From sequence record MF327003: a stretch of 64,000 nt of DNA; one strand, given 5' to 3'. The notes under the pieces were generated by a model, which searched no databases, was not told the origin of the DNA, and saw only the letters and a list, made by a program, of their open reading frames with translations. The position numbers and the translations under genes are program-made. How positions within the stretch are numbered: the stretch's first letter is position 1; each line of letters opens with the position of its first letter. The stretch is from Shigella phage Sf14. Below are positions 9,125 to 60,116 of this stretch, in pieces.

Positions 9125-11885
<2,761 letters not shown>

Positions 11886-11886
<1 letters not shown>

Positions 11887-13771: not shown

Positions 13772-13773
13772 CA

Positions 13774-14631
13774 ATGTTTAAAAAGATTGAAAACTTTTAT
13801 GAGAAAACATTGGACGAAAGAACTGTAACTCAATTCAAAGATAAGTTTATTTACACAAGTCTATTGAAATCTATCACAGATGAGTTACAATTATTAGAGG
13901 ATATTAGTAATCAGTTATATACTGAAAGAAATATTCGTGTAGGTGTTGGCACACAACTTGATAACATCGGGGCTTTGATTAAAGTCCCTAGACCTATTGG
14001 TGCTGATGATGACATTTACAGAGCTACCCTCTACATTCAAATTTTCTTAAGACGTTCTGACACCACACCAAGCTTCTTACAAAAAGCTGTTATGACCCTT
14101 TACAACGCATCATTCAGTCAGATTTTTGAGCACATTACGCCAATGACTGGTGGAATTGTTATCCGTGTAAACACTCGTAATGACGTGTTAGATACAGCAT
14201 ACACACTTTCTAAGATTGCTGCAACAACTATTGGTTCAGCAGTTATCCTTAGAGATGTTACCTTAAATGGCACTGCTTGGACTCCTGTAGAGGTTGCTGA
14301 TTCATCTCTGGCAATCACTGATGAGAACAATAACTGGTTTGTAACAAACACTAACAAGGGTCTTATTACGAACAACACAGGTGGCTCTCTAGAAGCAAAT
14401 AAATTAGGTAGTTTTGCAGATGCAGGTGTAAGAGATGGTTATGTAAGAGTGGATAAAACTGGTGGAAGTACCAGTAAAGATTATTTAAAAGTCAGCAAAA
14501 CAAACAATAGCAACGACTATTTCATTGCTGGTAAAGAAACAGTAGCAGGTGGTGATTATGGGATTATGGCAGAAGTCGCCCAAATCGTCAAAGGCAGAAA
14601 AGATAAATCTCAACAAGAAGGAAGTTCATAA
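13774..14631 (+). CDS. baseplate/tail fibre-associated protein (gpI-like position)
   Basis: ATG at 13774 with AAGGAG RBS (track ORF begins at an upstream TTG at 13735). Confidence 0.35.
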
Positions 14632-14930
14632 TGTCTCTTTCATGGTCTACAGACACAGTTGATGCTGACGGTAACCAGCTTAAAGTTTTACCACCTCCAG
14701 AAATTCAAGCCACTGGCCTATTAAGGGGTGAACCTATGGGTCGTCAGTGGTTTAACTATATTATCAACTATTTGCTTAACAAAGTAAATGGTACGGTTGG
14801 AGAGGTTCGTTCATTTGCTACGGAGCAACCTGATTTAGTTTCCAATGGTTGGGAATTAATTGACACAGTAACAGGAACTGCACCCACTAGCACGACTAAC
14901 CTTTACACATACGAATATAAAGGGAGCTAA
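14631..14930 (+). CDS. small tail protein, unknown
   Basis: 99 aa, coupled between baseplate genes and tail fibre. Confidence 0.3.
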
Positions 14931-14932
14931 TA

Positions 14933-16108
14933 ATGCCAGTCGGTGAAATTCAAATTAGTGCATTGCCTCAAGCCTCATTGCCTATTGATTTAAGTGATAT
15001 CTTTCACCTTAAGCAAGGTATCGAGGATAAACGATGCACACTTGAGCAATTACTTGCTCCACACGCATCTTTAAGAAATAACCCACACGGTGTTACAAAG
15101 GTTCACGTAGAACTCGGTAATGTTGTTAACGCACTCCAATTAGTGGCTGCTAATAACTTGTCAGACGTGGTTAGTGTTGAAGAGGCTAGGCAGAACCTTA
15201 ATATTCTATCAAGTGATGAAGTTAATGCCCTTATTCAGAATCACATTAATGACAAGAATAACCCTCACAACACTAACAAGATTCAAGTAGGTTTGTCTAA
15301 TATTCAAAACTGGACATATTCAAACTCTTACTCTGAGGATGCTGATAAGTATGCTACTGCAAAAGCTGTGAATGCTTTATACAGGGCTATCCAGAATAGC
15401 TATCCAATCGGTACTATTCATTTGTCAGTTAACCCTGCAAACCCATCTACATATTTACTTTGTGGTGGTACTTGGGAGTTAGTTTCTAAAGGAAGGTCTC
15501 TTGTCGGTTATGACACAGATACAAGACCTGTAGAATCAGTATTTGGTTCTGCTACTGTAACACTTACACAAAATAACATTCCAAGTCACACACACTCTGT
15601 GTTGTTAACTGGTGGTGGACACTCCCACAATGCAACAGTAGTAATTTCTAGCTTTGACTATGGGACTAAGAGCACATCAAGTTTTGATTATGGCTCTAAG
15701 GCCACAAACGACTCTGGAAGCCACGCTCATAATGTTAATGGTTCTGTGAGTAGTGCTGGTAGTCACAGCCACAGGATTCCATTGAGGGGTTCTGACAGGG
15801 GTGGTGTGAACGCTATTACGGCAACGGCTGATGCAGGTGTTGGTAATGCGTCATATACAGACTTTGATGGGGTTCACACACATACCTTCAACGTTAACTC
15901 TTCAGTTGGTGGTAACCACTCTCACAGTGTGTATATCGGAGCACATGGACACAGTGTTGCAATTGGTTCACATGGACACTCAGGTACTGTGACAGTTCAA
16001 TCTTCTGAGCACACTCACTCAGGTACAACTGGTGCATTTGGTGCTGGACAAGCATTTAATATTGAGCAACCTTCTTATGTTGTATATGTTTGGAAGAGAA
16101 CTGCGTAA
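14933..16108 (+). CDS. tail fibre protein with NPH-type fibre repeats, collar-like domain and His-rich HxH C-terminal region
   Basis: Repeats NNPHGVTKVHVELGNVVNA / NNPHNTNKIQVGLSNIQNW; collar-like segment PIGTIHLSVNPANPSTYLLCGGTWE; many HxH triplets (HSH, HAH, HTH, HGH); ends VWKRTA. Confidence 0.6.
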   Translation: MPVGEIQISALPQASLPIDLSDIFHLKQGIEDKRCTLEQLLAPHASLRNNPHGVTKVHVELGNVVNALQLVAANNLSDVVSVEEARQNLNILSSDEVNALIQNHINDKNNPHNTNKIQVGLSNIQNWTYSNSYSEDADKYATAKAVNALYRAIQNSYPIGTIHLSVNPANPSTYLLCGGTWELVSKGRSLVGYDTDTRPVESVFGSATVTLTQNNIPSHTHSVLLTGGGHSHNATVVISSFDYGTKSTSSFDYGSKATNDSGSHAHNVNGSVSSAGSHSHRIPLRGSDRGGVNAITATADAGVGNASYTDFDGVHTHTFNVNSSVGGNHSHSVYIGAHGHSVAIGSHGHSGTVTVQSSEHTHSGTTGAFGAGQAFNIEQPSYVVYVWKRTA

Positions 16109-16119
16109 TTATTTTATAA

Positions 16120-16136
16120 GGGGCTACACAGCCCCT
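16120..16136 (+). other. GC hairpin GGGGCTACACAGCCCC between the two tail fibre genes (no T-run)
   Basis: Perfect 6-bp GC stem; same GGGGCT...AGCCCC arms as hairpins at 48213 and 53075. Confidence 0.4.
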
Positions 16137-16153
16137 AGAAAGAGGATTTATAA

Positions 16154-18532
16154 ATGGCTGAATATAAGCTAAGTGAGCTAAACAGTATTGATACAGTTCG
16201 CTCAGAAGATTTACTTCACCTAAGAATTATCAAAAGGTCTGATATGCTAGGTGATGAAGACCGTAAAATGACCTATGCAAATTTCCTTGCCTCTTTCAAA
16301 CTAGAAAGATTCTTACAACTAACTGGTGGGGATATGACAGGGAATCTTGGCATCGTCAAATTAAGATACGGTGGAAAAGACTTATTAGACCCAACAGGTT
16401 CTTCTGAGGTTATTCTCGGTGACACTGCCAAGACCTTTAGAATTAATGCAAGTGCTTTAAGATTAACTGTAAATGATGCCACAAGGTCTGCAACAGTTTA
16501 TCACACACTTAATAAACCATCTCCTAATGAATTAGGTATGAGAACTAATACTGAAAATGATGCAAGATACGCTATGAAGGAAACTGAAAATACCTTCTTG
16601 GCAAGACAAATCATTAATATCAACGGTGTTGGTTTGACACTTAAAAGTATCTTACCAGATGGTGGAGCATATATTGAAGCAAGAGACTCAAATAATGCTT
16701 TGAGATTCACAGTTGGTAACTTGACTTCTGGGACTGATGTTACATTAGTTAACAGCAAAGGTGCTACGTTGACTCTTGGTACAAACTCTGTTAGTGTTGA
16801 CAAGAACTTTGAAATCAATGGTCAGGTTCAGCCTAATAACTGGAACAACCTTGATGCAAGATTCTTTACACAGACTGCTGCTGACCAGAGATTTGCAAGA
16901 CTTAATGCAAGTAATAACTTTGTTGGGGTTAACAACTTCAACGGGAAGACTTATGTTATTGCAGATAGTAATGCACTTAACTTAAGAGCGGCTTCAGAGA
17001 ATGCTGCATTATTTATGCGTGGTTACAACAGTGCTGGGACAGGTGCTTGGTATGTGGGTCAACCAGATGGTACGCAGTCTGAGATTGTTTTAGCAAACCA
17101 GATGACAAATGTTAACTTGAAAATTGCTACAGAGTTTTCATTTAACAAAGCTATTAATGTAACTGGTCAGGTAAAACCAAGTGACTTCGCAAACTTTGAT
17201 ACAAGATATGTTCCAAGCTCTTTAACAAACGTGCTTGCAAGAACTAATGCTGCAAACGTTTTTACTAACCCACAAACTATTGTTACTACAGATGCGGCTT
17301 TCACATTGCAAAGTGGGACAGCTAATTCATCACTATATATTGTTGGTGCTAATGCAGATGGAAACAGACGTTGGTATGTTGGTAACGGTGAAGGTAGTAG
17401 ACCAAACTCTCTGTTCCTGTACAACTACTCAAGCGGTGGTGTACAGTTAGAAATTGCTGATACTTTCATGTTTAATAGAAGCGTATCAGTATCTGGTCAG
17501 GTTCAGCCTACAGATTGGACAAACTTTGACTCAAGATACTACACACAATCTGCTGCAAACTCAAGATATATGTTGTCTGGTGTATCTGGAACGGGAACCG
17601 AAGTCGGTGATGCAACAGGTATTGCTTGGAATGCAAAAACAGGTTTGTACAATGTTACCAACTCAACTGGTGGTTCGACTCACTTAGTTTACCAAATGTA
17701 CCTTGGAATTGGCGCATCCACACCTTCTGCACAGCTTAAATTTAACTATAAGAATGGTGGAATCCACTATAGAACAGCAAGGGATGCTTTTGGTTTTGAA
17801 GAGGCTTGGGCTAAAATCTACACAGACCAAGACAAACCTACACCTTCCGAGATTGGTACTTACACCAAGGCTGAAGTAGACCAACGTATTGCTTCTGCTG
17901 TAACTGATTCTACAGACCTTAAAAAAGTGTATCCAGTTGGTATTGTGACGTTCTTTGCTTCTAATGTCAACCCAAATACAGCTTTCCCAGGCACTACTTG
18001 GACTTACTTGACAGAAGGTGCAAACAGAACTATTAGAATCGGCTCTGCGAATGGCTCTGATGTGAAAGGTCTTGGGGGTGCTGATACGGTTGCATTAAGT
18101 GTTGGTCACATCCCTGCGCACACTCACGGATTCTCTGGAACGACTTCTTGGTTTGACTATGGTACTAAGTACACAGATGCTCAGGGTGCTCACGACCATG
18201 ACAGAGGTAACATGGAAATATCTGGGGTGTTCGGGTGGTTCAGAAGTGATAATGCTGCATTCTATACTGCAAGTGGTGCTTTTGCAATGGGTGGTAGTCA
18301 GGCTTCTCATGGTTTCACTGGTTCTAACTTCACATATGGTGCTCCAGTTGATTTCTATGCTTCCAGAACTTGGACGGGTAGAACAAGCTGGGTAGGTGCT
18401 CATGCTCACGGTGTAGGTATTGGTGGACACAACCACACATTTAGTGGTGATACTGGTGCAACTGGTTCTGGTGCAGCATTCAGTGTTCTTAACACTTACA
18501 TTAAATTAATGGCTTGGGTAAGAACTGCATAA
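16154..18532 (+). CDS. long tail fibre protein (paralog of upstream fibre)
   Basis: 792 aa; LTGGDMTGNL N-terminal fibre motif; three internal repeats of the form NxSVxxxGQVQPxxWxNxDxR(Y/F)xTQ(S/T)AA; collar-like VYPVGIVTFFASNVNPNTAFPGTTWT; HxH-rich C-terminus ending AWVRTA. Confidence 0.65.
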   Translation: MAEYKLSELNSIDTVRSEDLLHLRIIKRSDMLGDEDRKMTYANFLASFKLERFLQLTGGDMTGNLGIVKLRYGGKDLLDPTGSSEVILGDTAKTFRINASALRLTVNDATRSATVYHTLNKPSPNELGMRTNTENDARYAMKETENTFLARQIININGVGLTLKSILPDGGAYIEARDSNNALRFTVGNLTSGTDVTLVNSKGATLTLGTNSVSVDKNFEINGQVQPNNWNNLDARFFTQTAADQRFARLNASNNFVGVNNFNGKTYVIADSNALNLRAASENAALFMRGYNSAGTGAWYVGQPDGTQSEIVLANQMTNVNLKIATEFSFNKAINVTGQVKPSDFANFDTRYVPSSLTNVLARTNAANVFTNPQTIVTTDAAFTLQSGTANSSLYIVGANADGNRRWYVGNGEGSRPNSLFLYNYSSGGVQLEIADTFMFNRSVSVSGQVQPTDWTNFDSRYYTQSAANSRYMLSGVSGTGTEVGDATGIAWNAKTGLYNVTNSTGGSTHLVYQMYLGIGASTPSAQLKFNYKNGGIHYRTARDAFGFEEAWAKIYTDQDKPTPSEIGTYTKAEVDQRIASAVTDSTDLKKVYPVGIVTFFASNVNPNTAFPGTTWTYLTEGANRTIRIGSANGSDVKGLGGADTVALSVGHIPAHTHGFSGTTSWFDYGTKYTDAQGAHDHDRGNMEISGVFGWFRSDNAAFYTASGAFAMGGSQASHGFTGSNFTYGAPVDFYASRTWTGRTSWVGAHAHGVGIGGHNHTFSGDTGATGSGAAFSVLNTYIKLMAWVRTA

Positions 18533-41903: not shown

Positions 41904-42096
41904 ACGTTTATGGGATGGTTTTGTTGAAGATGCTCCGATGATTGCTCTGGCATTCATGGTTACTAGCCTGTTTACTGATTTAAAACAAGGTGCTCTATTT
42001 GGAGCTATGCTAGTATGGGTTATCTTTGAGATATTAGATATCAAACATGATTTGAGTGGAAAGCTTAAAAAGCTTATTGAAAAGTTTTCTAAGTAG
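41896..42096 (+). CDS. small membrane protein
   Basis: 66 aa, hydrophobic. Confidence 0.3.
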   Translation: MLKRLWDGFVEDAPMIALAFMVTSLFTDLKQGALFGAMLVWVIFEILDIKHDLSGKLKKLIEKFSK

Positions 42097-42106
42097 AATT
42101 AATATA

Positions 42107-42130
42107 AGGGTCTCTTCGGAGACCTTTTTT
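42107..42130 (+). terminator. intrinsic terminator
   Basis: AGGGTCTC-TTCG-GAGACCT followed by TTTTTT. Confidence 0.7.
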
Positions 42131-42145
42131 GCATTAGGAGTCAGA

Positions 42146-44290
42146 ATGGTTAAAGTACAAATTATTAAGAAAGACGGTTCACTGGAAAAACCAAATGTAA
42201 ATAAAATCGTCGAAGCAGTTACCAAGTCAGCTAATAGAGTTGGCTACAAAGAGTTACCACTAGAAGTTATCCATGCTCTTGAATCAGCCTTTATGAGACT
42301 GCTTGTCAGAGCAACTAATCAGAATGCTATGCTCATCTCTGTAGATGATGTTCACAGTATTGTGGAAGGAACTCTGGCAGAGATAAACCATGAAATCTAC
42401 GAGTCATATTCAACCTACAGAAACTATCGTAAAGAGGTTGCACAGAATTGGGATGAACTTTACCAGAAAACTAAAGACACACTCTTCTTAGGTGACCGTG
42501 AGAATGCTAACTTTGACAGTAGCTTAATCTCTACAAAAGGTTCAATCATCCGTGGGTATCTGACAAAAGAAATATTTAAGCAGTATCACTTGACACCAGA
42601 AGAAGCAAGTGCTATTGAAGATGGATTCATTTATATCCATGACTTAAGAGATTTAATCTTCGGTGGTATTAACTGTTGCTTGTTTGACATTGGAAGTGTC
42701 TTGAAAGGTGGTTTTGAAATGTCCGGCATCGAATACTGTGAACCAAAGTCTGTACTTTCAGCTTTACAGGTTATTGGTGACGTTGTACTCTCAGCAACTG
42801 CACAGCAGTTTGGTGGGTTCACTATCCCAGAGATTGACAAGGTTCTTGTGCCATATGCTAAGAAGTCTTTTGAGTATCATCTGGAAAAAGCAAAGCAGTA
42901 TAATATCACAGGGAGAGGTGGTGCATACCACTATGCTAAAGAACAACTTCAGATTGAGCTAACCCAAGGCTTCCAATCTCTGGAAATGAAACTGAATACA
43001 GTTCCTTGCAGCCGTGGTGACTTTGCATTCACAACCTTAACATTTGGTTTACTCGAACCAGATATGGCTAGTGAAGATAACCGCTTGCAATTTATGATTG
43101 CGAAGACTATTCTTGATGTGAGAATGAATGGTCAAGGTAAATCTAAGAAGCCTGTTGTATTCCCTAAACTGGTTTACATCTATGATGAAACAAGACACAT
43201 GTTAGACCCTTGGCAGGGAACTCTTTATGACAAAGCTATTGAGTGCTGTTCTAAAGCTATGTACCCAGACTTCTTAAGTGTTTCTGGTCATGGTTCTGTT
43301 GCAGAAGCTTTTGAGCGTTCAGGTGCAGTCATCTCTCCAATGGGTTGTAGGGCTTTCTTATCTCCATATCATGATGAAGATGGTAAAGAGTTCTACACAG
43401 GGCGAGCAAACATTGGTGCAGTATCTCTCAATCTGCCAATGATTTACAAGTATTCTGAAGAGAATGGTTTAGACTTCTGGACAGAACTTGACAAGTATCT
43501 TGAGATGATTAGAAGCTTCCATAAAAAGCGTTATGAGATGATTGCTAATATGCCAGCAAGTTCTAACCCTCTGGCATTCACACAAGGTGGTTTGTATAAA
43601 GGTCATAAGAAGCCAACTGACAAGATTGGTTGGGATACTGTGAAGTCTTTTACAGCCTCTTTCGGTGTCACTGCATTGGATGAGTTGACAGTCCTTGCAC
43701 AAGGTAAGAGATTACATGAGTCAGACGGTGATATTGCAAGTAAGGTTTTAAACTACCTTAATGGCAAACTGGAGCAGTTTAAACAGGAAGATGGTTTCTT
43801 GTATGCCCTCTATGGTACACCTGCTGAGAGCCTTTGTGGTACGCAATTGAAGCAGTTTAGAAACATGTTTGGAGTTGTTAAAGGTGTATCTGATAAAGAA
43901 TACTTTACAAACAGCTTCCACATGAATGTTGGTGCAGATATTACACCATTTGAAAAGCAAGACTTAGAAGAACCTTTCTTCCATGCTTGTAATGGTGGTC
44001 ATATCCAGTACGTTCGTATTGCTAATCCAGAGAATCATAAAGCTATTAGGGCTTGTGTGACAAGAGGTATGGGTAAAGGTTTCTATCAAGGTGTTAACTT
44101 TGACTTGGCAATCTGTGAGAATTGTGGTCACCGTCCAAGTGCAGATGTTGAGTTGTGTCCTAAGTGTAACTCACATGATATCTCTGTGATTAACCGTGTT
44201 TGTGGATACCTTGGCTGGACTAAGATTAAAGGTACTTCCAGAATGAACGATGCAAAAATTGCTGAGATTCAGGATAGAAAATCTATGTAA
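42146..44290 (+). CDS. nrdD: anaerobic ribonucleoside-triphosphate reductase (class III)
   Basis: C-terminal glycyl-radical motif RVCGYLG preceded by Cys4 zinc site (CENCGH...CPKCN); start moved to ATG 42146 (GGAG RBS) because track start 42056 precedes a terminator. Confidence 0.85.
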   Translation: MVKVQIIKKDGSLEKPNVNKIVEAVTKSANRVGYKELPLEVIHALESAFMRLLVRATNQNAMLISVDDVHSIVEGTLAEINHEIYESYSTYRNYRKEVAQNWDELYQKTKDTLFLGDRENANFDSSLISTKGSIIRGYLTKEIFKQYHLTPEEASAIEDGFIYIHDLRDLIFGGINCCLFDIGSVLKGGFEMSGIEYCEPKSVLSALQVIGDVVLSATAQQFGGFTIPEIDKVLVPYAKKSFEYHLEKAKQYNITGRGGAYHYAKEQLQIELTQGFQSLEMKLNTVPCSRGDFAFTTLTFGLLEPDMASEDNRLQFMIAKTILDVRMNGQGKSKKPVVFPKLVYIYDETRHMLDPWQGTLYDKAIECCSKAMYPDFLSVSGHGSVAEAFERSGAVISPMGCRAFLSPYHDEDGKEFYTGRANIGAVSLNLPMIYKYSEENGLDFWTELDKYLEMIRSFHKKRYEMIANMPASSNPLAFTQGGLYKGHKKPTDKIGWDTVKSFTASFGVTALDELTVLAQGKRLHESDGDIASKVLNYLNGKLEQFKQEDGFLYALYGTPAESLCGTQLKQFRNMFGVVKGVSDKEYFTNSFHMNVGADITPFEKQDLEEPFFHACNGGHIQYVRIANPENHKAIRACVTRGMGKGFYQGVNFDLAICENCGHRPSADVELCPKCNSHDISVINRVCGYLGWTKIKGTSRMNDAKIAEIQDRKSM

Positions 44291-44713: not shown

Positions 44714-45106
44714 ATGACTAAATTAAATAAAAATCAAATGAACTGGCTTAAAGACTATGCTTTAGAGTGTGGCTCTTGTGAGAAAACTCACAGAAAATAC
44801 TCAGAGTTTTACATAGCATGTACCCTTTTAATAACTGATTCTGTTATTGATGATGCAACGGATGATGACATTGAACTCCCTACGGAGTTGAGTGATAAAG
44901 TCTTAGTAGTAACTGGAACATGGTCAGATTCATATGGTACAGAAATTGGTGACATGTCTTTCTACAGTATTCAGCAAACAATGAACCCTAAGTACGTTGC
45001 TTTGATGACTCGTGCTCAGGAAGATGAACTGCTTCAGGAATTTATTAAAGAGCACTGTGAAGAGTACGTCACAAAACATGTAAGTTTTGAAGTTGAGGTG
45101 TGCTAA
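44714..45106 (+). CDS. hypothetical acidic protein
   Basis: 130 aa, AAAGGAAAGAG RBS. Confidence 0.3.
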   Translation: MTKLNKNQMNWLKDYALECGSCEKTHRKYSEFYIACTLLITDSVIDDATDDDIELPTELSDKVLVVTGTWSDSYGTEIGDMSFYSIQQTMNPKYVALMTRAQEDELLQEFIKEHCEEYVTKHVSFEVEVC

Positions 45107-45591
45107 TGAACTACATGGAAATACGAAAATTTGATACAGCGAACGGTGAAGGTGCTCGTGTCAGTCTTTTTGTAGCTGGCTGCAAGCATCACTGTGAAGG
45201 TTGCTTTAACAAAGAGTCTTGGAAGTTTAATGCTGGTAAAGAGTTTACTTATGCAAACCTTTATGGCATTATGCAGATAATGAATGATGATGGAATTAGT
45301 GGTCTATCTATCCTTGGTGGAGAACCACTTGATGATAGAAATGTTCAGACAGTAACAAATATCTGTAAGCGGATTAAAACCGTATACCCAGACAAGTCTA
45401 TCTGGTTATGGACAGGTTACCAGCTACATGAAAAAATTAACTTAGAAGTGATGAAATATGTTGACGTGGTAATAGATGGTAAGTATGATGCTTCTAAACC
45501 GACACACAAACCATATCGTGGGTCTGACAATCAAATACTTTGGAGAAAAGAATATGGCTGGCAAGGTGACTGTCAATGGAGAGCAGAATAG
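45106..45591 (+). CDS. nrdG: anaerobic ribonucleotide reductase activating protein (radical SAM)
   Basis: CKHHCEGC cluster (CxxxCxxC); adjacent to nrdD; start at ATG 45106 (track ORF begins at GTG 45100). Confidence 0.75.
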   Translation: MNYMEIRKFDTANGEGARVSLFVAGCKHHCEGCFNKESWKFNAGKEFTYANLYGIMQIMNDDGISGLSILGGEPLDDRNVQTVTNICKRIKTVYPDKSIWLWTGYQLHEKINLEVMKYVDVVIDGKYDASKPTHKPYRGSDNQILWRKEYGWQGDCQWRAE

Positions 45592-47038: not shown

Positions 47039-47309
47039 AGAACAATGGGATATCAAAGAGCTTATTAGCGAAGCTGGAAATGGTAGTGAGATGTATATGA
47101 TACGTGGTCACGTCCCAGATGCACTTGCTATTGAGATGATAGACCACTACTCCAACGGATTCTATAAAGAGTTTGGAGAGCCAAATATTGAACGTACTTG
47201 GACAAAACCAGTACCAGACGGAACAGGAAACTGTTCAGTTATCTACCACATTGTAGACCCAAAGAAATGTAAATCAGCTATGGCTGTAACATTTGTAACT
47301 TTTGACTGA
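47031..47309 (+). CDS. hypothetical protein
   Basis: ATG 47031 overlapping upstream stop; 92 aa. Confidence 0.3.
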   Translation: MAREQWDIKELISEAGNGSEMYMIRGHVPDALAIEMIDHYSNGFYKEFGEPNIERTWTKPVPDGTGNCSVIYHIVDPKKCKSAMAVTFVTFD

Positions 47310-47319
47310 GAGAAATATT

Positions 47320-48201
47320 ATGAAAACTACTATTCGAGTTCTACTTAATTCAAATTCCAAAGGTTCTCATCAAGAGGCCTTCAACATTATCCAGTTCCCT
47401 TCTGGTGAGATTGGTGGTAACTTCTCAGAAGACTTAGTAGACTTTGCTGAACATGCTGCTGGTAAGATTGAAAACGTAATCTTCACAGTACAAGGTTATG
47501 ACAAAGACACACTCTTTGCATTGGCTATGGCTAAAGAGGCTATTGACCGTTTGATTCCTCAGAAAGCAACCATGAAAACTGTTCTTTTTGGATTCTTACC
47601 AAATGCTCGCTATGACCGTCACATGTTTAAAGGCGATTCAGCAGCATTAAAAGTCTTTGCAAATTTGGTAAATGCTATGGAGTTTGATGCAGTATGTGCT
47701 TTAGATACTCACAGCAACGTAGCAGAGAACTTGTTTAAGTGCTTCTATAACCTACCTCAGAAAGAGGCAGCAGTACACTTTGCAAGTGACCCACGTATTG
47801 ATTTCTTAGTGGCTCCAGATGCAGGTGCAGCTAAGAAGACTGAAGAGGCTGCTAAAGAGGTTGACAAGCCGTATATCACAATGGCTAAGGTTCGTAACCT
47901 GAAAACTGGTGAAATCACTGGTATGCGAATCCTTGATGATGTAGACTTAACTGGTAAAACTGTCATGATTCTTGATGATATCTGTGATGGTGGACGTACA
48001 TTTGTAGAGGCTGCAAAGTATCTCCGTGAAGCTGGTGCAAGCCGTGTAGAACTCTATGTAACTCATGGGATTTTCTCGAAAGGTGTTGAAAACCTTCTTG
48101 ACAATGGTATCGACCATATCTACACTACAGACTCACTAGGAAGTGCTAGTTCCCGTGGTCTGAGTCAGTTCTCGCAAGTAACTGTAGCAAACATTGAGTA
48201 A
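47320..48201 (+). CDS. ribose-phosphate pyrophosphokinase-like (PRPP synthetase family) protein
   Basis: PRPP-binding motif MILDDICDGGRT; ATG 47320 with GAGAG RBS. Confidence 0.7.
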   Translation: MKTTIRVLLNSNSKGSHQEAFNIIQFPSGEIGGNFSEDLVDFAEHAAGKIENVIFTVQGYDKDTLFALAMAKEAIDRLIPQKATMKTVLFGFLPNARYDRHMFKGDSAALKVFANLVNAMEFDAVCALDTHSNVAENLFKCFYNLPQKEAAVHFASDPRIDFLVAPDAGAAKKTEEAAKEVDKPYITMAKVRNLKTGEITGMRILDDVDLTGKTVMILDDICDGGRTFVEAAKYLREAGASRVELYVTHGIFSKGVENLLDNGIDHIYTTDSLGSASSRGLSQFSQVTVANIE

Positions 48202-48212
48202 TAAACTTTGAA

Positions 48213-48228
48213 GGGGCTGAAAAGCCCC
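48213..48228 (+). other. GC hairpin GGGGCTGAAAAGCCCC between prs-like and nampt-like genes
   Basis: Identical 16-mer recurs at 53075-53090; no T-run; sits within a promoter-like context (TTGAAG...TATTGA). Confidence 0.45.
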
Positions 48229-48249
48229 ACTATTGAGAGAGATAAAATT

Positions 48250-50076
48250 ATGTCTAAATCAGTTTATGCAGTACCAGCAGGTCTTAATGCCGATGCCTAC
48301 AAAGCTGGCCACATCTACCAGTACCCAAGTGCTACACAGTATCTTATGCTGAACCTTACACCTCGTGGTGATAAGTGGTTTAACACACCACTTGATATTG
48401 ATGGTGTAGTTGCTTTTGGTATTCAACGTTTCGTTAAAGATTACTTAGTAGACCACTGGAATACTACCTTCTTTGAACGAGATAAGAAAGAAGCTGTTGA
48501 CGAAATCTTAGAAATCATGAACGGTGTTCTCGGTGCAGATGCAATTGGTCGTGAGCATTGGGAAGAACTTCACGATTTAGGTTATCTGCCAGTTGAAGTT
48601 TACTCTGTCGAAGAAGGTACAGTGGTTCCGATGCGTGTACCAATGATTATCTTCAAGAACACTGTAGAAGGGTTCCATTGGGTAGCTGGATATCTGGAAG
48701 ATGCTTTCTCTGCTGAGATTTGGAAAGCTTCTACCATTGCAACTATCGCACTACACTACAAACGTATCTGTAAGCAATGGTCTGGCGTAACCTGTGACAA
48801 TGACTTCCACTTACCTTGGCAGTGTCATGACTTTGCAATGCGTGGTATGTCAGGCTTTACAGATGATGCTTTTAACGCTGTAGGTCACCTGACAAGCTTT
48901 AAAGGTACTGATAGCTTCCCTGCTGTCTACACTGCGAAACGTGCTTATGGTCAGTTCATGACAGTAAGTGATATCGGGAACTCCGTACCAGCTACTGAAC
49001 ACTCTGTAATGTGTGCAAACATTTCATGGAATATGAAAGACTTGTCAGAAGAAAATATTCATTCACAGTACATCATGCAGTCTGATGGTTTACTTGATGC
49101 AAAACGTTGGCGTGGCGAGGTTAAAACCTTTGAGCATTTACTGGTAGACGTCTACCCAACTGGTCTTGCAAGTGTTGTATCAGATACTTACAACTTCTGG
49201 CGTACTGTTACACAGATTCTGCCAGAGCTACGTAATGTAATCCTGAATCGTGATGGTAAGTTGGTAATCCGTCCAGACTCTGGAGACCCTGTTCACATTG
49301 TCACAGGTTACAAAGCCATTGAATGGGAAACTGCTAAGTCAATGTTCTATAAGCACATGAAAGAGCTTGCACCGAACAATACACATCTACATGACACAAT
49401 CTTGAATTGTGAAATGTCTGATATTGGCTTTGGATTCTCTGCTTGGCTAATCTCTGAAGGTTATGAGATGGTTGTTGATAAAGAAGATTTTGAATCTGCT
49501 GATACAATCAACCTTATTACTGCTCAGAAGACTGGACAGTTTACTGTGAAGCGTATGCTGACAGCAGAAATTGACGGAGCTATCCACACGCTGTATAACA
49601 TCTTTGGTGGCACTGTTAACTCCAAAGGGTACAAAGTATTGGATGAGCACATTGGGCTAATCTACGGTGATTCTATCACTCTGGAAAGGGCTAATGAGAT
49701 TCTGTCACGTCTTGCTGATAAAGGTTTTGCAAGTTCTAACGTAGTGTTTGGTGTAGGCTCATATACCTATCAGTACCTGACTCGTGACACCTTTGCATTT
49801 GCTGTTAAAGCAACTCTTGCACAGATGGATGGTCAAGAAATTATGCTGGCTAAAGACCCTAAAACTGACAGTGGTCTTAAGAAGTCTGCTTTTGGTGGAG
49901 TTGTCCCTATGTGGGATGGTGACAAGCTAGTAGCTGTAGATGGTTTTGGCTTTGCAGAGTTTGAAGGTGCAATTGACAATTGTCATAGTGCTTTGAAACT
50001 GGTATTTAGTAACTCGCAACCTTATGGTTACGTTAACCTGCGTGATGTTCGAAATACTATTGACAAGCAACTTTAA
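48250..50076 (+). CDS. nadV: nicotinamide phosphoribosyltransferase-like (Nampt/NadV family) protein
   Basis: 609 aa; size and sequence character of Nampt family; adjacent to Prs-like gene. Confidence 0.7.
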   Translation: MSKSVYAVPAGLNADAYKAGHIYQYPSATQYLMLNLTPRGDKWFNTPLDIDGVVAFGIQRFVKDYLVDHWNTTFFERDKKEAVDEILEIMNGVLGADAIGREHWEELHDLGYLPVEVYSVEEGTVVPMRVPMIIFKNTVEGFHWVAGYLEDAFSAEIWKASTIATIALHYKRICKQWSGVTCDNDFHLPWQCHDFAMRGMSGFTDDAFNAVGHLTSFKGTDSFPAVYTAKRAYGQFMTVSDIGNSVPATEHSVMCANISWNMKDLSEENIHSQYIMQSDGLLDAKRWRGEVKTFEHLLVDVYPTGLASVVSDTYNFWRTVTQILPELRNVILNRDGKLVIRPDSGDPVHIVTGYKAIEWETAKSMFYKHMKELAPNNTHLHDTILNCEMSDIGFGFSAWLISEGYEMVVDKEDFESADTINLITAQKTGQFTVKRMLTAEIDGAIHTLYNIFGGTVNSKGYKVLDEHIGLIYGDSITLERANEILSRLADKGFASSNVVFGVGSYTYQYLTRDTFAFAVKATLAQMDGQEIMLAKDPKTDSGLKKSAFGGVVPMWDGDKLVAVDGFGFAEFEGAIDNCHSALKLVFSNSQPYGYVNLRDVRNTIDKQL

Positions 50077-54278: not shown

Positions 54279-54304
54279 GGGGCTGCTTCGGCAGCCTTTT
54301 TTAT
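54279..54304 (+). terminator. intrinsic terminator
   Basis: GGGGCTGC-TTCG-GCAGCC followed by TTTTTTATTT. Confidence 0.7.
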
Positions 54305-54332
54305 TTGAAAAATGTGCAGGTTAGTGTATAAT
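54305..54332 (+). promoter_or_regulatory. near-consensus sigma70 promoter TTGAAA-16-TATAAT
   Basis: TTGAAA 54305-54310, TATAAT 54327-54332; spacer contains TGTGCAGGT, the same 9-mer that recurs in the 58.9-kb repeat array. Confidence 0.6.
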
Positions 54333-54363: not shown

Positions 54364-54912
54364 ATGAAGAAATTTGTTTTAGGTTTGTGCTTATTCTTTA
54401 CAGCACATTTAGCTACAGCATCTGACTGTCCAGAGCTTACAATCAGCCAGAAAGTTAATATGTTAAAAGCATATAACTATGGCGAAGGACAGATGGGAAA
54501 AGGTTGGGGAATCCCTTTAGCAGCTATAGCCTTACAAGAGTCACAATTAGGTGTCATGTTAGAAAATAAAAAGACTCATGATTATGGTGTTTTCCAGAAT
54601 CACTTGAAGACTGTTGTAAAGCGTAACAAGGTATCTCCAAAGGTTGCTAAGAAGAAGCTAGTAAGTGACTTCCATTACTCAGCGAAAGAGGCTCATAAGG
54701 AGCTATTATTCTGGACTAAGGTTCATGGTAACCCAGATGGAAAGTACTCTATGAAGCGTGTCCTAGCTTCTTATAATGCTGGTTACAAATACAAGATTCC
54801 AAAGGCTAGACAATACTCTCAAGATGTGTACAATAACATGAAACTGCTGGCTCAATGTGAGTTTGCAACAAACATTAAAAAGGTAAAATATGAGCGAATC
54901 AAAACAATTTGA
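54364..54912 (+). CDS. lytic transglycosylase (SLT domain) with N-terminal signal peptide; endolysin candidate
   Basis: AGGAG RBS; signal peptide MKKFVLGLCLFFTAHLATA; SLT motifs ALQESQLG, GVFQ, SYNAG. Confidence 0.5.
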   Translation: MKKFVLGLCLFFTAHLATASDCPELTISQKVNMLKAYNYGEGQMGKGWGIPLAAIALQESQLGVMLENKKTHDYGVFQNHLKTVVKRNKVSPKVAKKKLVSDFHYSAKEAHKELLFWTKVHGNPDGKYSMKRVLASYNAGYKYKIPKARQYSQDVYNNMKLLAQCEFATNIKKVKYERIKTI

Positions 54913-55585
54913 TATGGTTCTGTGTCATGCTTATGATATTAAGCCACTTGATTTAGATATCAGTTCTGCAAGTTGGTCAGATATTGCTAGAGCTGACTTT
55001 GCAGATACAGCAAGAAATGTTATATGTAGTTTTGAAGACTTTCATTCAACAAAGACACAGATTCCTTGTCAGGATTTGCTAACAGGTAAAACTGTATATG
55101 TTGGTCGTAACAGCCTTATCTTGGTTGCAAAGAACTTGGAAGAAAAACGTAAAATGGTCTTAGCAGACATTGACGGTGTTCTTACAAGCTTTAATAAGGA
55201 GCTTAATGCAACTCTGCTAACTGATGGTACTTACTCACAGTACACTGATTTGGTAGAATCTTGCAGAGCTAAACCAACATATGTTTTTAACATTCTGTGT
55301 GGTATATCAAGAAATGCTGATATAGGATTCTTAACTGCTCGTGGTGAATCACAAAGAGTTGTCACACATCTTTTCCTGAATGAGAATGTAGACAGTGATT
55401 TCCTACTGTTTATGCGTGGATTTGGTGACAATGAGATTAGTGCAGAAAGTTTGAAAGTTCGTATGCTTCAGTCTTGCATTCTACCTTACTATGATGTAGT
55501 ATGCTTTATAGAAGATACAGTGAAGAACGTGGAGAAGGTTGAAAGAATCTTACCACACATCAAAACAATGCTTGTTAAAAACTGA
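54890..55585 (+). CDS. hypothetical protein, possible HAD-like hydrolase
   Basis: LADIDGVLT resembles HAD motif I (DxDGx). Confidence 0.25.
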   Translation: MSESKQFDMVLCHAYDIKPLDLDISSASWSDIARADFADTARNVICSFEDFHSTKTQIPCQDLLTGKTVYVGRNSLILVAKNLEEKRKMVLADIDGVLTSFNKELNATLLTDGTYSQYTDLVESCRAKPTYVFNILCGISRNADIGFLTARGESQRVVTHLFLNENVDSDFLLFMRGFGDNEISAESLKVRMLQSCILPYYDVVCFIEDTVKNVEKVERILPHIKTMLVKN

Positions 55586-56838: not shown

Positions 56839-57291
56839 ATGAAAGTTCAACCATATTATACTGAGTTTAAAGATTCTAACGGTGAAATCTGCACATTACA
56901 ATGAAGCTCATCATTTGAGCCTCGTATTTGGCTTGGTGCAAAAGAAGTCTCAGTAAAGTATCTGAGCAATGGTTGGAAAGAACTGGATATACCCGCATTG
57001 ACAGGTAAGGATTTTGTAGGTAATCAACGTATGAACCTGAACCAAGCTCAGGTAAAAGAGCTACTACCTTACCTTCAATACTTCGCAGAACATGGTGAGT
57101 TACCTAACTGTGAAATTTCACCAGAAACACATACTGATAAAAAGCAAGAATTGCTTAAACTGATTGAAGAGTATGGTGATTCTCGTTACAATGAAGCTGG
57201 AGAAAGTTGTGTAGGTTCTGTAGAGGGTTTAACACTCTGGGAAGAAGCCTCAATATCCTTACTCCAACAAATCAAAGAAGTTATCCAGTGA
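56839..57291 (+). other. ORF interrupted by single in-frame TGA (56902-56904): pseudogene, readthrough candidate, or sequence error
   Basis: ATG 56839 with GAGGA RBS; frame open from 56905 to 57291; downstream segment's first start is a TTG without RBS. Confidence 0.35.
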
Positions 57292-57300
57292 GGTTTAGTG

Positions 57301-57627
57301 ATGCAACTAGATGGTAAGAATTATGTAGCCGTCTTTTCAGACGGTGAGAAAGAAATTGGTACAGCACAAGTCTGTCACAGTGGTAAAGAGTTTCTCTATG
57401 GGGTTGTTGCATTCATTGGTACTCGTGGTGATATGAAATCTTTTAAAGATTGTGTTGACAAGCTTGAAGAATCCATAGAGAATCATTGGTGTCTGATATG
57501 GCTTAATGCAGAGAATGTTAAAGAACGCTATGCAAAAGTTGGTATCCATATTGAAAGCATCGAACATGTTGACCTGTTTGAACTAACTGAAAAGGTGATG
57601 TATGAAAGCAATTCTGGTAAGAAGTAA
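57301..57627 (+). CDS. hypothetical protein
   Basis: ATG 57301 with GAGG RBS. Confidence 0.3.
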   Translation: MQLDGKNYVAVFSDGEKEIGTAQVCHSGKEFLYGVVAFIGTRGDMKSFKDCVDKLEESIENHWCLIWLNAENVKERYAKVGIHIESIEHVDLFELTEKVMYESNSGKK

Positions 57628-57862
57628 AGTTACACGTCAAGTGTTAGCAGGGGCTATATTTGTTGGACGGGATGAGGTGATGCCATTTGGTTCACGAATC
57701 TATAAAGGTTCTGTACTATCACATAGCCACTTTAAGGCTGGTGATTTTTGTCACTATATTAACAGGGGCTATCTAAGAGAGGAACTCGGATATTGGAAGA
57801 CCCGCATTAAGGAAAGATACGGTGACAGAGTATTCTTACAAGAGGTAATCTCAAATGGCTGA
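57602..57862 (+). CDS. hypothetical protein
   Basis: 86 aa ORF. Confidence 0.3.
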   Translation: MKAILVRSKVTRQVLAGAIFVGRDEVMPFGSRIYKGSVLSHSHFKAGDFCHYINRGYLREELGYWKTRIKERYGDRVFLQEVISNG

Positions 57863-58055
57863 TTTCTGCACTAAGTGTTCTGTTGAGATGTTTGGAAAAG
57901 ACACAGGGGACTTAAAAGGCCTCTTTACAAAAGCAGAGTTTGAAGCTGGTTCAGCAATGCCAGTAATCTGTGAAGGTTGTGGTGCTTTATGGGTAGACCA
58001 TGAAGGTAACCGAGTTAAACCATCTGAAGATAACGAACGTTGGGAGCATTACTAA
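57855..58055 (+). CDS. small zinc-binding protein
   Basis: CTKC...CEGC cysteine pairs; 66 aa. Confidence 0.3.
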   Translation: MADFCTKCSVEMFGKDTGDLKGLFTKAEFEAGSAMPVICEGCGALWVDHEGNRVKPSEDNERWEHY

Positions 58056-58056
58056 T

Positions 58057-58851
58057 ATGGGTATCGTAAAAATTATTAAAGGTGATATCTTTAAAGACTT
58101 TGATGGTAAGAAATTTGATATCATTGGTCACGGTTGTAACTGCATGAACTTGATGGGTGCAGGTATCGCAGCAACAATTGCCAAACGTTACCCAAAAGCT
58201 TATGAAACTGACGCTGAAGTTTATGCTACAGTAGGTGGTGAAAATCATAACCCTAAGCATCTAATGCTTGGTAACATCTCTGTAGCACGTTTTAAGCAGG
58301 GTCGAATTGCTAACCTTTACACTCAGGTTATCACTGGCAAAGATGCACGATACAACGCCTTAGAAGCAGCTTTACAGCGTCTTAACAACTACTGTAAAGT
58401 TAATCAACTTAAGAAAGTTGGGCTTCCGATGATTGGTGCAGGGATTGGTGGTCTTGATAGCATGGCTGTGCTGTCCATTATCAACCAGACTATGAAGGAT
58501 GTTGACGTTTATATGTATGTCTATGAAGATAAGATGTACAGTCAGTTGACTAGTCCTGTTACTGGTTGGGAGAACTTCAGTGAGCCTCAATACTTTGATG
58601 GTGTTGCTGTGGTAGGCAAGGATAAAGTTACCCTCAAGGTGAAGCGTAATGGCAAGGTACACACCAGTTACCCTCCGGTTGAGAAGTACAATCGAAGTAA
58701 CGCTCAAGTTACCCACCCGTTACAAGGCCACCACCACAGAGCGGTAACGTTTGGCGATGATGCAAGTGTATATATCAATGCGACTACAGAAGAGTTTGCA
58801 GAAGATTATATCACACATGAAAACGTAAACTATGTTGAAGCACGTAACTAA
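58057..58851 (+). CDS. macro domain (ADP-ribose binding/processing) protein
   Basis: IIKGDIF...DIIGHGCNCMNLMGAGIAATI resembles the macro-domain GDIT...NAAN...GGGVAGAI core. Confidence 0.5.
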   Translation: MGIVKIIKGDIFKDFDGKKFDIIGHGCNCMNLMGAGIAATIAKRYPKAYETDAEVYATVGGENHNPKHLMLGNISVARFKQGRIANLYTQVITGKDARYNALEAALQRLNNYCKVNQLKKVGLPMIGAGIGGLDSMAVLSIINQTMKDVDVYMYVYEDKMYSQLTSPVTGWENFSEPQYFDGVAVVGKDKVTLKVKRNGKVHTSYPPVEKYNRSNAQVTHPLQGHHHRAVTFGDDASVYINATTEEFAEDYITHENVNYVEARN

Positions 58852-58875
58852 TAAGTCACCTAGATAGACATAGAC

Positions 58876-58924
58876 AAGCCCTCCAAAGTTTGAGTTTTAA
58901 ATCTCAGGTAAGGAGGGCTTTTTC
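58876..58924 (+). terminator. putative terminator with long loop
   Basis: AAGCCCTCC ... GGAGGGCTT arms followed by TTT. Confidence 0.4.
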
Positions 58925-59104
58925 ATTTCAAATCTGTGCAGGTATAGTTGAGTAGAACTCTGGACAGATTTCTTTAACTGAACTCCAAAGGGAAATTTCA
59001 TTTTCAAAACGTGCAGGTCTAGACTCCAAAGAGCTTTTTCATTTTCAATCTGTGCAGATGCAGTTGGACTCCAAAGGGAAAATTCATTTTCAAATTGTGC
59101 AGGT
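58919..59104. repeat. degenerate tandem repeat array, 4 units of about 41-45 bp
   Basis: Units carry ACTCCAAAG (58982, 59023, 59068; CTCCAAAG also at 58881), TTCATTTTCAA and TGTGCAG(G/A)T; followed by C-rich tract 59121-59156. Confidence 0.7.
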
Positions 59105-59276
59105 AGGTAGCTGTAGGAAACCAGCCCCACCATCCCCTCTTACTCCCCTTCCTCCCAAAAGTCAAGCTAAAAATTTGTAGAGAACTGAAAAATAATTCTT
59201 GACGAGATTTCTGTTTTAGTGTATTCGCATACGTGCGTTCTATTCACGAAACATAAAATATTTTTAAAAAATTTTG

Positions 59277-59305
59277 TTGACTTCATAAATCCAGTCTTAT
59301 AGTAT
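59277..59305 (+). promoter_or_regulatory. early-type promoter TTGACT-17-TAGTAT (type 1 cassette)
   Basis: Followed by conserved leader TCAACGGG-hairpin-CAACAATCCTAAACTGGAGAATCT-A-rich-ATG. Confidence 0.55.
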
Positions 59306-59355
59306 TTGCATCAACGGGAAACATCCCAACAATCCTAAACTGGAGAATCTAAAAA

Positions 59356-59562
59356 ATGTTATATCAACGTGAGTTAATGATTGTTGACAACAACAAAACA
59401 AATAAACGTCGTTTCTATATGCTAATTTGTGATGTTTGGCAACGCATTTCAGAAAAGGATTTTGATAAATATGTTGATACGTCAATCAGGTCAGATTGTT
59501 ACTTGACAACTCATACAAGACAGTTTACAAGGCATACAGCAATTTATTATTACAACGTTTAA
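59356..59562 (+). CDS. early small protein
   Basis: 68 aa; conserved leader with GGAG RBS. Confidence 0.4.
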   Translation: MLYQRELMIVDNNKTNKRRFYMLICDVWQRISEKDFDKYVDTSIRSDCYLTTHTRQFTRHTAIYYYNV

Positions 59563-59573
59563 AAGGCTTGACA

Positions 59574-59735
59574 ATGATTAAAGAAAGCGATGTAATACAA
59601 TACAAAGATTTAGACGGATACCCAAAAATTGGTAAAGTCTTCTATCTCTATAAGTCTGCTATGGGTAATGATTGTATAGCCCTTACCAATGGCGACAAAA
59701 TAACCATGAAATATTTTATAAAAATTATTGCATAA
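59574..59735 (+). CDS. early small protein (53 aa)
   Basis: ATG with AAAAGG RBS; track ORF begins upstream at non-ATG. Confidence 0.3.
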   Translation: MIKESDVIQYKDLDGYPKIGKVFYLYKSAMGNDCIALTNGDKITMKYFIKIIA

Positions 59736-59740
59736 AGTGC

Positions 59741-59819
59741 TTTACATGGGGTTTAAAATCTAGTATCTTAAGCCCCAGATAAAGAGCTTTACAAACAATC
59801 CTAAACTGGAGAATCTAAA
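59741..59819 (+). promoter_or_regulatory. type 2 promoter/leader cassette (TTTACA-17-TATCTT with embedded hairpin, then conserved leader)
   Basis: TTTACATGGGGTTTAAAATCTAGTATCTTAAGCCCCAGATAAAGAGCTTTACAAACAATCCTAAACTGGAGAATCTAAAA; repeated at 4 other sites. Confidence 0.45.
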
Positions 59820-60116
59820 ATGTTTATTGCCGCAAACGTTAGAACTAAATTAAGCCAGCTATTAAGTAATATCCAATTCATTGAATCTATGCGCCGTACA
59901 TCTGAAGCCGTAGAGTGGTATCATGGAAAGATTAACAAAAAGGAAGTAATAATTTGTGTATGGAACTTTTGTAAAGAATACAAAAAACCATTGCTTCAGG
60001 TTGATATCTATGATAACACTAATAAGTCATCGATTAAGACCACTAGAGATATGGTTGATTCATATGAAATTAGTCACACTGGTAAACTATTCCACAAAGG
60101 TAAAAACAAATGTTAA
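59820..60116 (+). CDS. early small protein
   Basis: 98 aa behind type 2 cassette. Confidence 0.4.
   Translation: MFIAANVRTKLSQLLSNIQFIESMRRTSEAVEWYHGKINKKEVIICVWNFCKEYKKPLLQVDIYDNTNKSSIKTTRDMVDSYEISHTGKLFHKGKNKC

Follow-up and report, generated by a model that had tools for sequence, protein, structure and literature searches.

A macrodomain fused to an orphan C-terminal domain in Shigella phage Sf14, a candidate counter-defense enzyme encoded apart from a NARP1-type gene pair

Which reaction does a macrodomain protein carry out in a phage that also has candidate genes for rebuilding NAD+, and do the two belong together? We addressed this question for the gene at 58057-58851 in a stretch of 64,000 nucleotides of Shigella phage Sf14 (record MF327003); this whole stretch is referred to below as the window. 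The window is from a Mooglevirus (Ounavirinae, the FelixO1-like myoviruses of ~88 kb) and is near other Mooglevirus and Felixounavirus genomes. A preliminary description had read the gene as encoding a macro-domain protein, had tied it to a Prs-like/Nampt-like gene pair, and had proposed that the phage invests in ADP-ribose and NAD+ metabolism, possibly reversing host ADP-ribosylation or degrading immune signals derived from ADP-ribose. We find that the protein has two domains, and we tentatively favor a role like that of Tk.4/AdfM of phage T4, in which a counter-defense enzyme erases DarT2-type ADP-ribosylation of phage DNA. The features concerned are the following.

58057 to 58851, + strand: complete gene of the two-domain protein (264 amino acids, stop codon included), from the list of open reading frames (ORFs) and the translation
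58057 to 58536, + strand: macrodomain of the Poa1p/TARG1/DarG class, amino acids 1-160, from Pfam, a PDB profile search, and AlphaFold2 with Foldseek
58549 to 58848, + strand: C-terminal orphan domain, amino acids ~165-264
58876 to 58925, + strand: terminator-like hairpin, from the inverted repeat and RNA folding
47302 to 48201, + strand: Prs-like gene, candidate Adps of NARP1 (Pfam Pribosyltran and Pribosyl_synth; TIGR01251, 1e-37)
48208 to 50076, + strand: Nampt-like gene, candidate Namat of NARP1 (Pfam NAPRTase and NAMPT_N; NF006629, 2.7e-137)

The start of the gene is conserved among its homologues. The protein begins MGIVKIIKGDIFKDFDGKKFDIIGHGCNCMNLMGAGIAATI, and a Shine-Dalgarno-like GGGAG lies 10 nt upstream of the ATG at 58057. 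An alternative in-frame ATG at 58000 would give a longer ORF; we prefer 58057 because the corresponding position is where all 20 long homologues in the alignment begin, with M-[GASP]-[IV]-[VIT]-[KR] (mostly MGIVK or MAIVK). The whole protein matched PHROG 335, 'phosphatase' (E 7e-107). The orthologue in Shigella phage Sf16 was 100% identical over the aligned part (query amino acids 25-264), and the nucleotide identity to Sf16 was 99.3% over positions 57000-60000 of the window. The orthologue in phage SFPB is annotated 'macro domain-containing protein', and GenBank relatives already carry either that label or 'phosphatase'.

The first 160 residues are predicted to fold as an alpha/beta/alpha macrodomain with an ADP-ribose cleft, made of two glycine-rich loops and an adenine-contacting aspartate. 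The Pfam Macro profile (PF01661) matched amino acids 25-141 over profile positions 2-117 of 118 (116 covered), with a score of 32.9 bits against a gathering score of 22 (E 7e-8). A search of the PDB with a profile of 30 homologues found TARG1 (1.8e-17), the Mycobacterium tuberculosis DarG macrodomain (5e-15), and Poa1p (2.6e-14), and Poa1p was the top PDB match in a single-sequence search. An AlphaFold2 model based on the 30-homologue alignment had a mean predicted local distance difference test score (pLDDT) of 90.8 and a predicted template modeling (TM) score of 0.89. By Foldseek, this model matched ADP-ribose-bound TARG1 with a TM score of 0.85-0.87, DarG with 0.82, and Poa1p with 0.76. The macro-domain call of the preliminary description thus holds for amino acids 1-160, both by profile and by predicted fold, which has both glycine-rich loops, and the N-terminus quoted there (IIKGDIF...DIIGHGCNCMNLMGAGIAATI) is exactly amino acids 6-41. 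That description overlooked the last ~100 amino acids, a separate and unrelated domain.

The residues of the predicted active site resemble those of Poa1p. The key features of the macrodomain are G9-D10, H25-G-C-N28-C, the M33-G-A-G-I-A loop, N86-L-Y-T-Q90, and the P124-M-I-G-A-G-I-G-G loop. H25, N28, G36, A38, N86, Q90, P124, and G127 were invariant columns in the homologue alignments, and conservation extended to G9-D10, which contacts adenine, and to the two glycine-rich loops. The H-x-[CA]-N-C motif contains the histidine equivalent to H24 of Adpp and H23 of Poa1p, along with the conserved asparagine. Of the catalytic residues of Poa1p (taken from PMC12846349), His23 and Asn26 are kept here, and Ser30 and Gly33 are replaced, as in Adpp. 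The position of TARG1 K84, DarG K80, and PhiKZ AdfM K78 is Gln90 in the window protein, a glutamine shared with T4 AdfM and Adpp, and TARG1 D125 aligns to Gly131 in the profile alignment. As judged from these alignments, the H25/N28 catalytic set of Poa1p, Adpp, and T4 AdfM is present and the TARG1/DarG lysine is absent. The enzyme would hydrolyze the C1'' substituent of ADP-ribose, as a form of counter-defense.

By sequence, the macrodomain falls in a phage Poa1p-like clade together with T4 AdfM and Adpp. T4 tk.4 was needed only when DarTG2 was present in a transposon screen (HIDEN-SEQ preprint) and was renamed adfM; deleting it makes T4 sensitive to DarTG2, and removal of ADP-ribose from DNA by T4 AdfM was inferred there, not demonstrated (10.1101/2025.11.20.689424). 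PhiKZ gp104, also called AdfM, is DarG-like, with N23 and K78, and strips ADP-ribose made by DarT2 from DNA in vitro (PMC13309987). Adpp is an accessory enzyme (NARP1-AP) of NARP1, the Adps/Namat pathway in which NAD+ is rebuilt from ADP-ribose and nicotinamide. The aRES proteins (RES-domain defense proteins) cleave NAD+ to nicotinamide and ADP-ribose-1''-phosphate, which NARP1 cannot use, and 15% of NARP1 phages encode Adpp, an in-operon Poa1p-like macro protein that converts ADP-ribose-1''-phosphate to ADP-ribose; Adpp and NARP1 together counter aRES (Osterman et al., bioRxiv 10.64898/2026.01.28.702374). The Adpp of Vibrio phage Gary was purified, and its function was destroyed by H24A (bioRxiv 10.64898/2026.01.28.702374, Table S4).

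T4 Tk.4/AdfM was 40% identical to the window protein over amino acids 3-131 (E 2e-19), and Gary Adpp was 30% identical over amino acids 3-154 (E 2e-17). The tblastn scores were 79.7 bits for a JG004-type NARP1-adjacent macro, 69.3 for T4, 67.4 for an Acinetobacter NARP1 macro, 63.2 for Gary, and 28 for PhiKZ AdfM. With hidden Markov models (HMMs) of DarG, the window protein scored 53.5-54.7 bits, Gary Adpp 35-45, T4 AdfM 30-36, and PhiKZ AdfM 133-138. In a neighbor-joining tree whose deep nodes were without support (2-36%), the smallest clade uniting the window protein and T4 AdfM left out Gary Adpp in 78% of bootstraps. We rejected membership in the DarG type or the PhiKZ type of AdfM: the catalytic lysine is missing (Gln90), and the match to the NCBIfam DarG equivalog (54.7 bits; model positions 2-153 of 338 only) is far under the cut-off of 250. 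Membership in the TARG1/OARD1 group was likewise rejected, with the K84/D125 dyad replaced by Q90/G131.

The loop that follows the NLYTQ strand separates the window protein from NARP1-adjacent macros. Between this strand and the next helix there are eight residues in the window protein, T4 AdfM, and TARG1, and in nine of the nine sequences of the Ounavirinae group in the reference alignment (window included). The loop has 12-15 residues, usually Y-x-[YW]-G..., in Poa1p, in BT1257, and in each of the 13 NARP1-adjacent macros chosen as representatives from the published NARP1 table. We checked this association on 54 further IMG/VR loci, counting an Adps or Namat homologue within 10 kb, and found one near 13 of 29 macros with a long loop vs 1 of 25 with a short loop (p = 6e-4). 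When the loci were dereplicated at 70% identity, 6 of 18 long-loop vs 1 of 18 short-loop lineages were near NARP1 (p = 0.09), so that the association of the long loop with a NARP1 neighborhood is suggestive. A long loop would help to enclose the small 1''-phosphate substrate, and a short loop would leave the cleft open for a macromolecule. Among the IMG/VR loci, a 91.5-kb contig from an unrelated phage lineage (L057, positions 10001-16644) has a short-loop macro of 151 amino acids 3.6 kb upstream of adjacent Adps and Namat genes on the same strand, a second case besides the Ounavirinae of a macro near but outside NARP1.

The Prs-like and Nampt-like genes of the window are adjacent (47302-48201 and 48208-50076), 8 kb upstream of the macro gene. 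Adjacency of such genes is the published operational definition of NARP1 (bioRxiv 10.64898/2026.01.28.702374). On that basis the pair is a NARP1 pair, with a putative specificity for ADP-ribose and its pyrophosphate (ADPR-PP). Both ORFs named in the preliminary description are therefore real; the tie it drew between them and the macro gene is plausible, and is weakened by the distance (8 kb, with over 12 genes in between) and by a loop signature that is AdfM-like and not that of NARP1-adjacent macros. From the end of Namat at 50076 to the start of the macro gene at 58057 there are more than 12 ORFs, rIIA and rIIB among them, which puts the macro gene outside the published limit for in-operon genes, that of lying within two genes of Adps or Namat. 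The order Namat, rIIA, rIIB, ..., PNK, ..., macro was kept in metagenomic relatives that were only 36-48% identical. Across the Ounavirinae, then, the macro gene seems to be co-conserved with the NARP1 pair, yet they do not form an operon.

The macro gene is the last of a long block on the + strand that includes rIIA (50689), rIIB (53141), a polynucleotide kinase (PNK)-like gene (54890), spanins (56059 and 56300), and several small ORFs. A terminator-like hairpin at 58876-58925, after the macro stop codon, closes its transcription unit. Its arms are AAGCCCUCC and GGAGGGCUU, a U-run comes after them, and the folding energy is -22.6 kcal/mol (z -3.45). A simple terminator scan overlooked the hairpin because of its 27-nt loop, which forms an inner stem.

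The family to which the macrodomain belongs probably has a main role independent of NARP1. By tblastn, macrodomain relatives were found in 2,679 of 50,697 phage records, T-even tk.4 among them, and full-length matches including the last ~100 amino acids were found in only 254 records, all Ounavirinae. Nampt-like homologues were found in 2,028 phage records, with at least 60% identity in 254; the two counts of 254 come from separate searches that were not cross-tabulated. The genus make-up of the macro and Nampt-like matches was clearly different (e.g., 988 vs 192 Escherichia records), and because of this difference in genus-level counts many macro-bearing phages seem to lack a Nampt-like gene.

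The C-terminal ~100 amino acids form a separate domain that evolves rapidly. The domain (amino acids ~165-264) is beta-rich with one terminal helix, and its conserved features are an [FE]-P-x-x-F-D-G motif and a V-Y-[IL] strand. Its pLDDT was ~83-92 in the full-length model (70 for the block at amino acids 201-210) and 80 when it was modeled alone. Compared with a relative (L011), the C-terminal domain was 62% identical and the macrodomain 90% (dN, the nonsynonymous substitution rate, 0.30 vs 0.063); compared with Felixounavirus genes, the values were 47-54% and 72-75% (dN 0.46-0.50 vs 0.20-0.22). The C-terminal domain therefore evolves 2.4-4.7 times faster than the macrodomain of the same gene. 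The ratio of nonsynonymous to synonymous rates (omega) was ~0.3-0.6 for the C-terminal domain and 0.08-0.2 for the macrodomain, with synonymous changes (dS) saturated in distant pairs, indicating that the C-terminal domain is still under purifying selection. Based on this selection and the confident predicted fold, we take the domain to be real. Relaxed constraint would account for its rate, and so would an interface that faces a variable partner.

We found no relatives of the C-terminal domain outside these fusions. A Pfam search gave zero matches, a structure search of BFVD returned only its own orthologue, and an exhaustive scan of 1.84 billion representative proteins with HMMER found only four macro-fusion clusters and one fragment, besides marginal PQQ/BamB matches. 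PQQ/BamB propeller blades were repeatedly matched by its profile at weak E values (1e-5 to 5e-4); we judged this to be beta-hairpin pattern similarity and uninformative. Kinship with the C-terminal domain of DarG was rejected, as the DarG HMM match ends at position 153 of 338. Kinship with the aRES inhibitors aRad1 was unsupported: the ~70-amino-acid aRad1a/b have no evident likeness to the domain by eye, in a comparison made without direct alignment; tblastn found no aRad1 homologues across the window. Long extensions of two other macros (L061 and L051) were not homologous to it. The fusion of a macrodomain to this orphan domain, which is restricted to such proteins of this lineage, is undescribed before; the macrodomain enzyme family itself is known.

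We favor, tentatively, an AdfM-like role for the protein over an Adpp role, the two not being mutually exclusive. We give the AdfM-like role more weight because the closest characterized relative is T4 Tk.4/AdfM, which has the best identity of the two functionally characterized relatives, because the motifs and the loop are shared with it, because the gene lies in a separate block, and because the distribution of the family looks largely independent of NARP1. We also counted in its favor a DarG HMM score higher than those of T4 AdfM and Gary Adpp, and a terminator of its own in a gene block different from that of NARP1, along with the dereplicated loop counts near NARP1 and the 78% bootstrap figure given above. 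The macrodomain would bind ADP-ribose in the canonical cleft, with the GD adenine contact and the two glycine-rich diphosphate loops, and the group attached to C1'' of the distal ribose would be cleaved through the conserved His25/Asn28 set and not by a lysine of the TARG1/DarG type. ADP-ribose put on thymidines of single-stranded phage DNA by host DarT2-type toxins would be removed in this way, and replication would continue. More speculatively, the C-terminal domain might be an accessory module for targeting or partner binding, analogous in role to the DarT-binding second domain of DarG though unrelated in sequence and fold, and the same active site might also dephosphorylate ADP-ribose-1''-phosphate.

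Several observations weigh against the AdfM-like role. The role of T4 AdfM comes from the genetics of one preprint, and the activity of the window protein itself is predicted. With a glutamine (Gln90) at the TARG1/DarG/PhiKZ lysine position, which T4 AdfM also has, the window protein cannot use a DarG-like mechanism. The biochemically proven PhiKZ-type AdfM is only marginally similar (the 28 bits above), and the JG004-type NARP1-adjacent macro, which is uncharacterized, scores above T4. NARP1 is present in the same phage, and the macro and NARP1 counts, equal at 254 in separate searches, fit co-conservation across the Ounavirinae. Finally, the deep nodes of the tree are unsupported, and the association of loop and neighborhood weakens on dereplication.

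An Adpp acting at a distance from its pathway is possible, and in our judgment the best of the alternatives. The macrodomain would be an ADP-ribose-1''-phosphate phosphatase that returns the product of aRES to ADP-ribose, and the phage's own Adps and Namat would turn this into NAD+, making a dispersed NARP1-AP pathway. Many macrodomains dephosphorylate ADP-ribose-1''-phosphate in vitro. The similarity to the biochemically validated Gary Adpp extends across the whole domain, the histidine without which Adpp is inactive is H25 here, the Poa1p residues His23 and Asn26 are kept (with Ser30 and Gly33 different in Adpp as well), and Poa1p is the best single-sequence match in the PDB. The genome has the Prs-like/Nampt-like pair, with equal Ounavirinae record counts, and synteny is retained in the relatives at 36-48% identity. 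There is also the other short-loop macro, 3.6 kb from NARP1. The published survey of NARP1 accessory genes covered only two genes either way, and its table has no phage of Escherichia, Shigella, Salmonella, or Citrobacter; a case such as this one, in enterobacterial Ounavirinae, would be missed (bioRxiv 10.64898/2026.01.28.702374). The hosts of this phage group, namely E. coli, Shigella, Salmonella, and Citrobacter, have aRES proteins (bioRxiv 10.64898/2026.01.28.702374, Table S2). However, the gene lies outside the NARP1 operon, its short loop is unlike that of the 13 NARP1-adjacent macros and Poa1p, and most relatives seem, by genus-level counts, to be in phage groups without NARP1. Co-occurrence within one phage subfamily is a single evolutionary event, perhaps mere synteny. 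In the library of papers searched, none mentions Felixounavirus together with NARP1.

We consider it improbable that the protein acts on some other ADP-ribosylated target, as a mono-ADP-ribosyl hydrolase like TARG1 or MacroD that clears a protein or RNA modified by a toxin or defense effector, or a modification made by the phage. Macrodomains generally take mono-ADP-ribose off proteins and nucleic acids, the top profile and fold matches were to TARG1, and the fast-evolving C-terminal domain could recognize a variable host protein. However, the catalytic K84 and D125 of TARG1 are Gln90 and Gly131 here, no characterized relative has such a role, and no ADP-ribosyltransferase was seen beside the gene, although none was specifically looked for.

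There is an outside chance that the favored role and that of Adpp are combined in one bifunctional enzyme. The lysine-less, glutamine-type site would both erase ADP-ribosyl-thymidine made by DarT2 and dephosphorylate ADP-ribose-1''-phosphate made by aRES for the unlinked NARP1, and the C-terminal domain, with a new fold, would directly bind and inhibit a variable host defense protein, or localize the enzyme to it, as an independently evolved functional analogue of the DarT-binding domain of DarG.

A non-catalytic binder seems very unlikely. Such a protein would sequester an ADP-ribose-based immune signal, as a sponge or sensor, or bring the C-terminal domain to ADP-ribosylated sites; its ADP-ribose-binding loops are intact, and ThsA macrodomains bind His-ADPR signals. 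However, the catalytic histidine and asparagine are invariant across the family, which speaks for catalysis, and both characterized relatives are enzymatic, as shown or inferred. Degradation of immune signals derived from ADP-ribose, as suggested in the preliminary description, is unsupported: the known phage enzyme of this kind is a RyR-domain glycosidase and has no macrodomain (10.64898/2026.05.28.727677). The broader proposal of investment in ADP-ribose and NAD+ counter-defense has precedent in relatives, with Adpp and NARP1 acting against aRES and T4 Tk.4/AdfM against DarTG2.

Least probable is RNA-repair housekeeping, the role of yeast Poa1p, in which ADP-ribose-1''-phosphate from Tpt1/KptA-type removal of 2'-phosphates would be cleared after tRNA repair: it has the homology to Poa1p and the PNK-like gene 2.5 kb upstream, syntenic in relatives, in its favor, but no neighboring Tpt1 or ligase was seen, 2'-phosphates are not left by T4-type Pnkp/Rnl repair, and the synteny extends over the whole block. 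A link of the PNK-like gene to RNA-repair chemistry of the Poa1p type is judged unlikely. This gene (54890-55585) is annotated as polynucleotide kinase in SFPB and as HAD_PNKP in relatives, and it is syntenic with the macro gene in two distant loci (L004 and L006).

Several features around the macro gene and the NARP1 pair were seen along the way. Upstream, a 66-amino-acid ORF with CxxC...CxxC (57855-58055, zinc-ribbon-like) ends with a stop codon 1 nt ahead of the macro ATG, a spacing that suggests translational coupling of the two genes. As a conserved partner this ORF was rejected, as it is kept only in 26 close Ounavirinae loci and not in the distant macro-fusion relatives. In L004, a distant Ounavirinae-like relative, an ORF resembling an HNH/AP2 homing endonuclease (9694-10023) has inserted immediately ahead of the macro gene, whose start it overlaps. 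Downstream, four direct repeats of ~40 nt (58904-59104) come right after the terminator and are followed by a run of small ORFs. The repeat core TTCATTTTCAAANNGTGCAGGT has these four copies and one more at 54300-54321, 19 nt before an ORF at 54340 (five matches observed vs 0.04 expected). The direct repeats are probably phage promoter or regulatory elements that open the small-ORF ('early') region.

The Nampt-like ORF has 622 amino acids, of which residues 26-618 align to positions 9-461 of the 465 of the NCBIfam model; from these spans we conclude that it has insertions of ~140 amino acids. Its best identity in the phage database was 93.9%, and the macro region was 99-100% identical to Sf16, a contrast that points to a mosaic genome. 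Just upstream of the NARP1 pair, at 42056-44290 and 45100-45591, is a nucleotide-metabolism module that encodes the anaerobic ribonucleotide reductase NrdD, which has an ATP cone and a glycyl-radical domain, and the radical-SAM (S-adenosylmethionine) activase of this enzyme.

The gene is of interest beyond this phage. It is present in ~250 sequenced FelixO1-like phages, many of them candidates for therapy or biocontrol against Salmonella, Shigella, E. coli, and Citrobacter, and settling whether its target is DarTG2, aRES, or both would help to predict host range. The macrodomain is a test case for how a macrodomain without the TARG1/DarG lysine reverses ADP-ribosylation of DNA, as the genetics of T4 AdfM implies. 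It is also a test case for NARP1 accessory enzymes encoded outside the operon, a possibility undescribed before; if this is true, the published figure of 15% for the phosphatase is too low. The C-terminal domain is small and confidently modeled, has no detectable relatives, and evolves at a rate expected of an arms-race interface. The phage function of the Poa1p-like macro family was established only in 2025-2026, and the macrodomain described here is a further, already annotated member. If none of these readings is true, the gene is an ordinary, already annotated accessory gene.

Among the known systems, DarG, PhiKZ AdfM, and human TARG1 are lysine-dependent ADP-ribosyl glycohydrolases; the window protein is without this lysine. 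DarG and TARG1 are of the same macrodomain class by fold (TM scores of 0.82-0.87), DarG HMMs match the window protein at 1e-14, and DarG has a two-domain layout in common with it, although the C-terminal domains are unrelated. In yeast Poa1p (PDB 6LFQ-6LFU), an ADP-ribose-1''-phosphate phosphatase that serves eukaryotic tRNA splicing, H23 and N26 correspond to H25 and N28 of the window protein. Poa1p differs in having a serine at the position of Q90, a long loop, and a large insertion ahead of the second glycine loop.

Gary Adpp is a member of the same Poa1p-like macro clade, with the catalytic histidine kept, and comes from a phage that, like the one studied here, has Adps and Namat. Its gene, however, lies between Adps and Namat, and not 8 kb off; it has HQCNC, NVYGQ, and a 15-residue loop where the window protein has HGCNC, NLYTQ, and eight residues, and it is without the C-terminal domain. 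T4 AdfM is a single domain of 155 amino acids, to which the window protein adds its C-terminal ~100; it has GKGNW where the Ounavirinae have GGLD and have thus lost the conserved tryptophan, and T4 is without NARP1, unlike the window phage with its NARP1 pair. T4 AdfM and the window protein have in common the HGCNC, NLYTQ, and IGAGIG motifs, the eight-residue loop, and glutamine at the TARG1/DarG lysine position, and both are encoded by accessory genes of lytic enterobacterial myoviruses.

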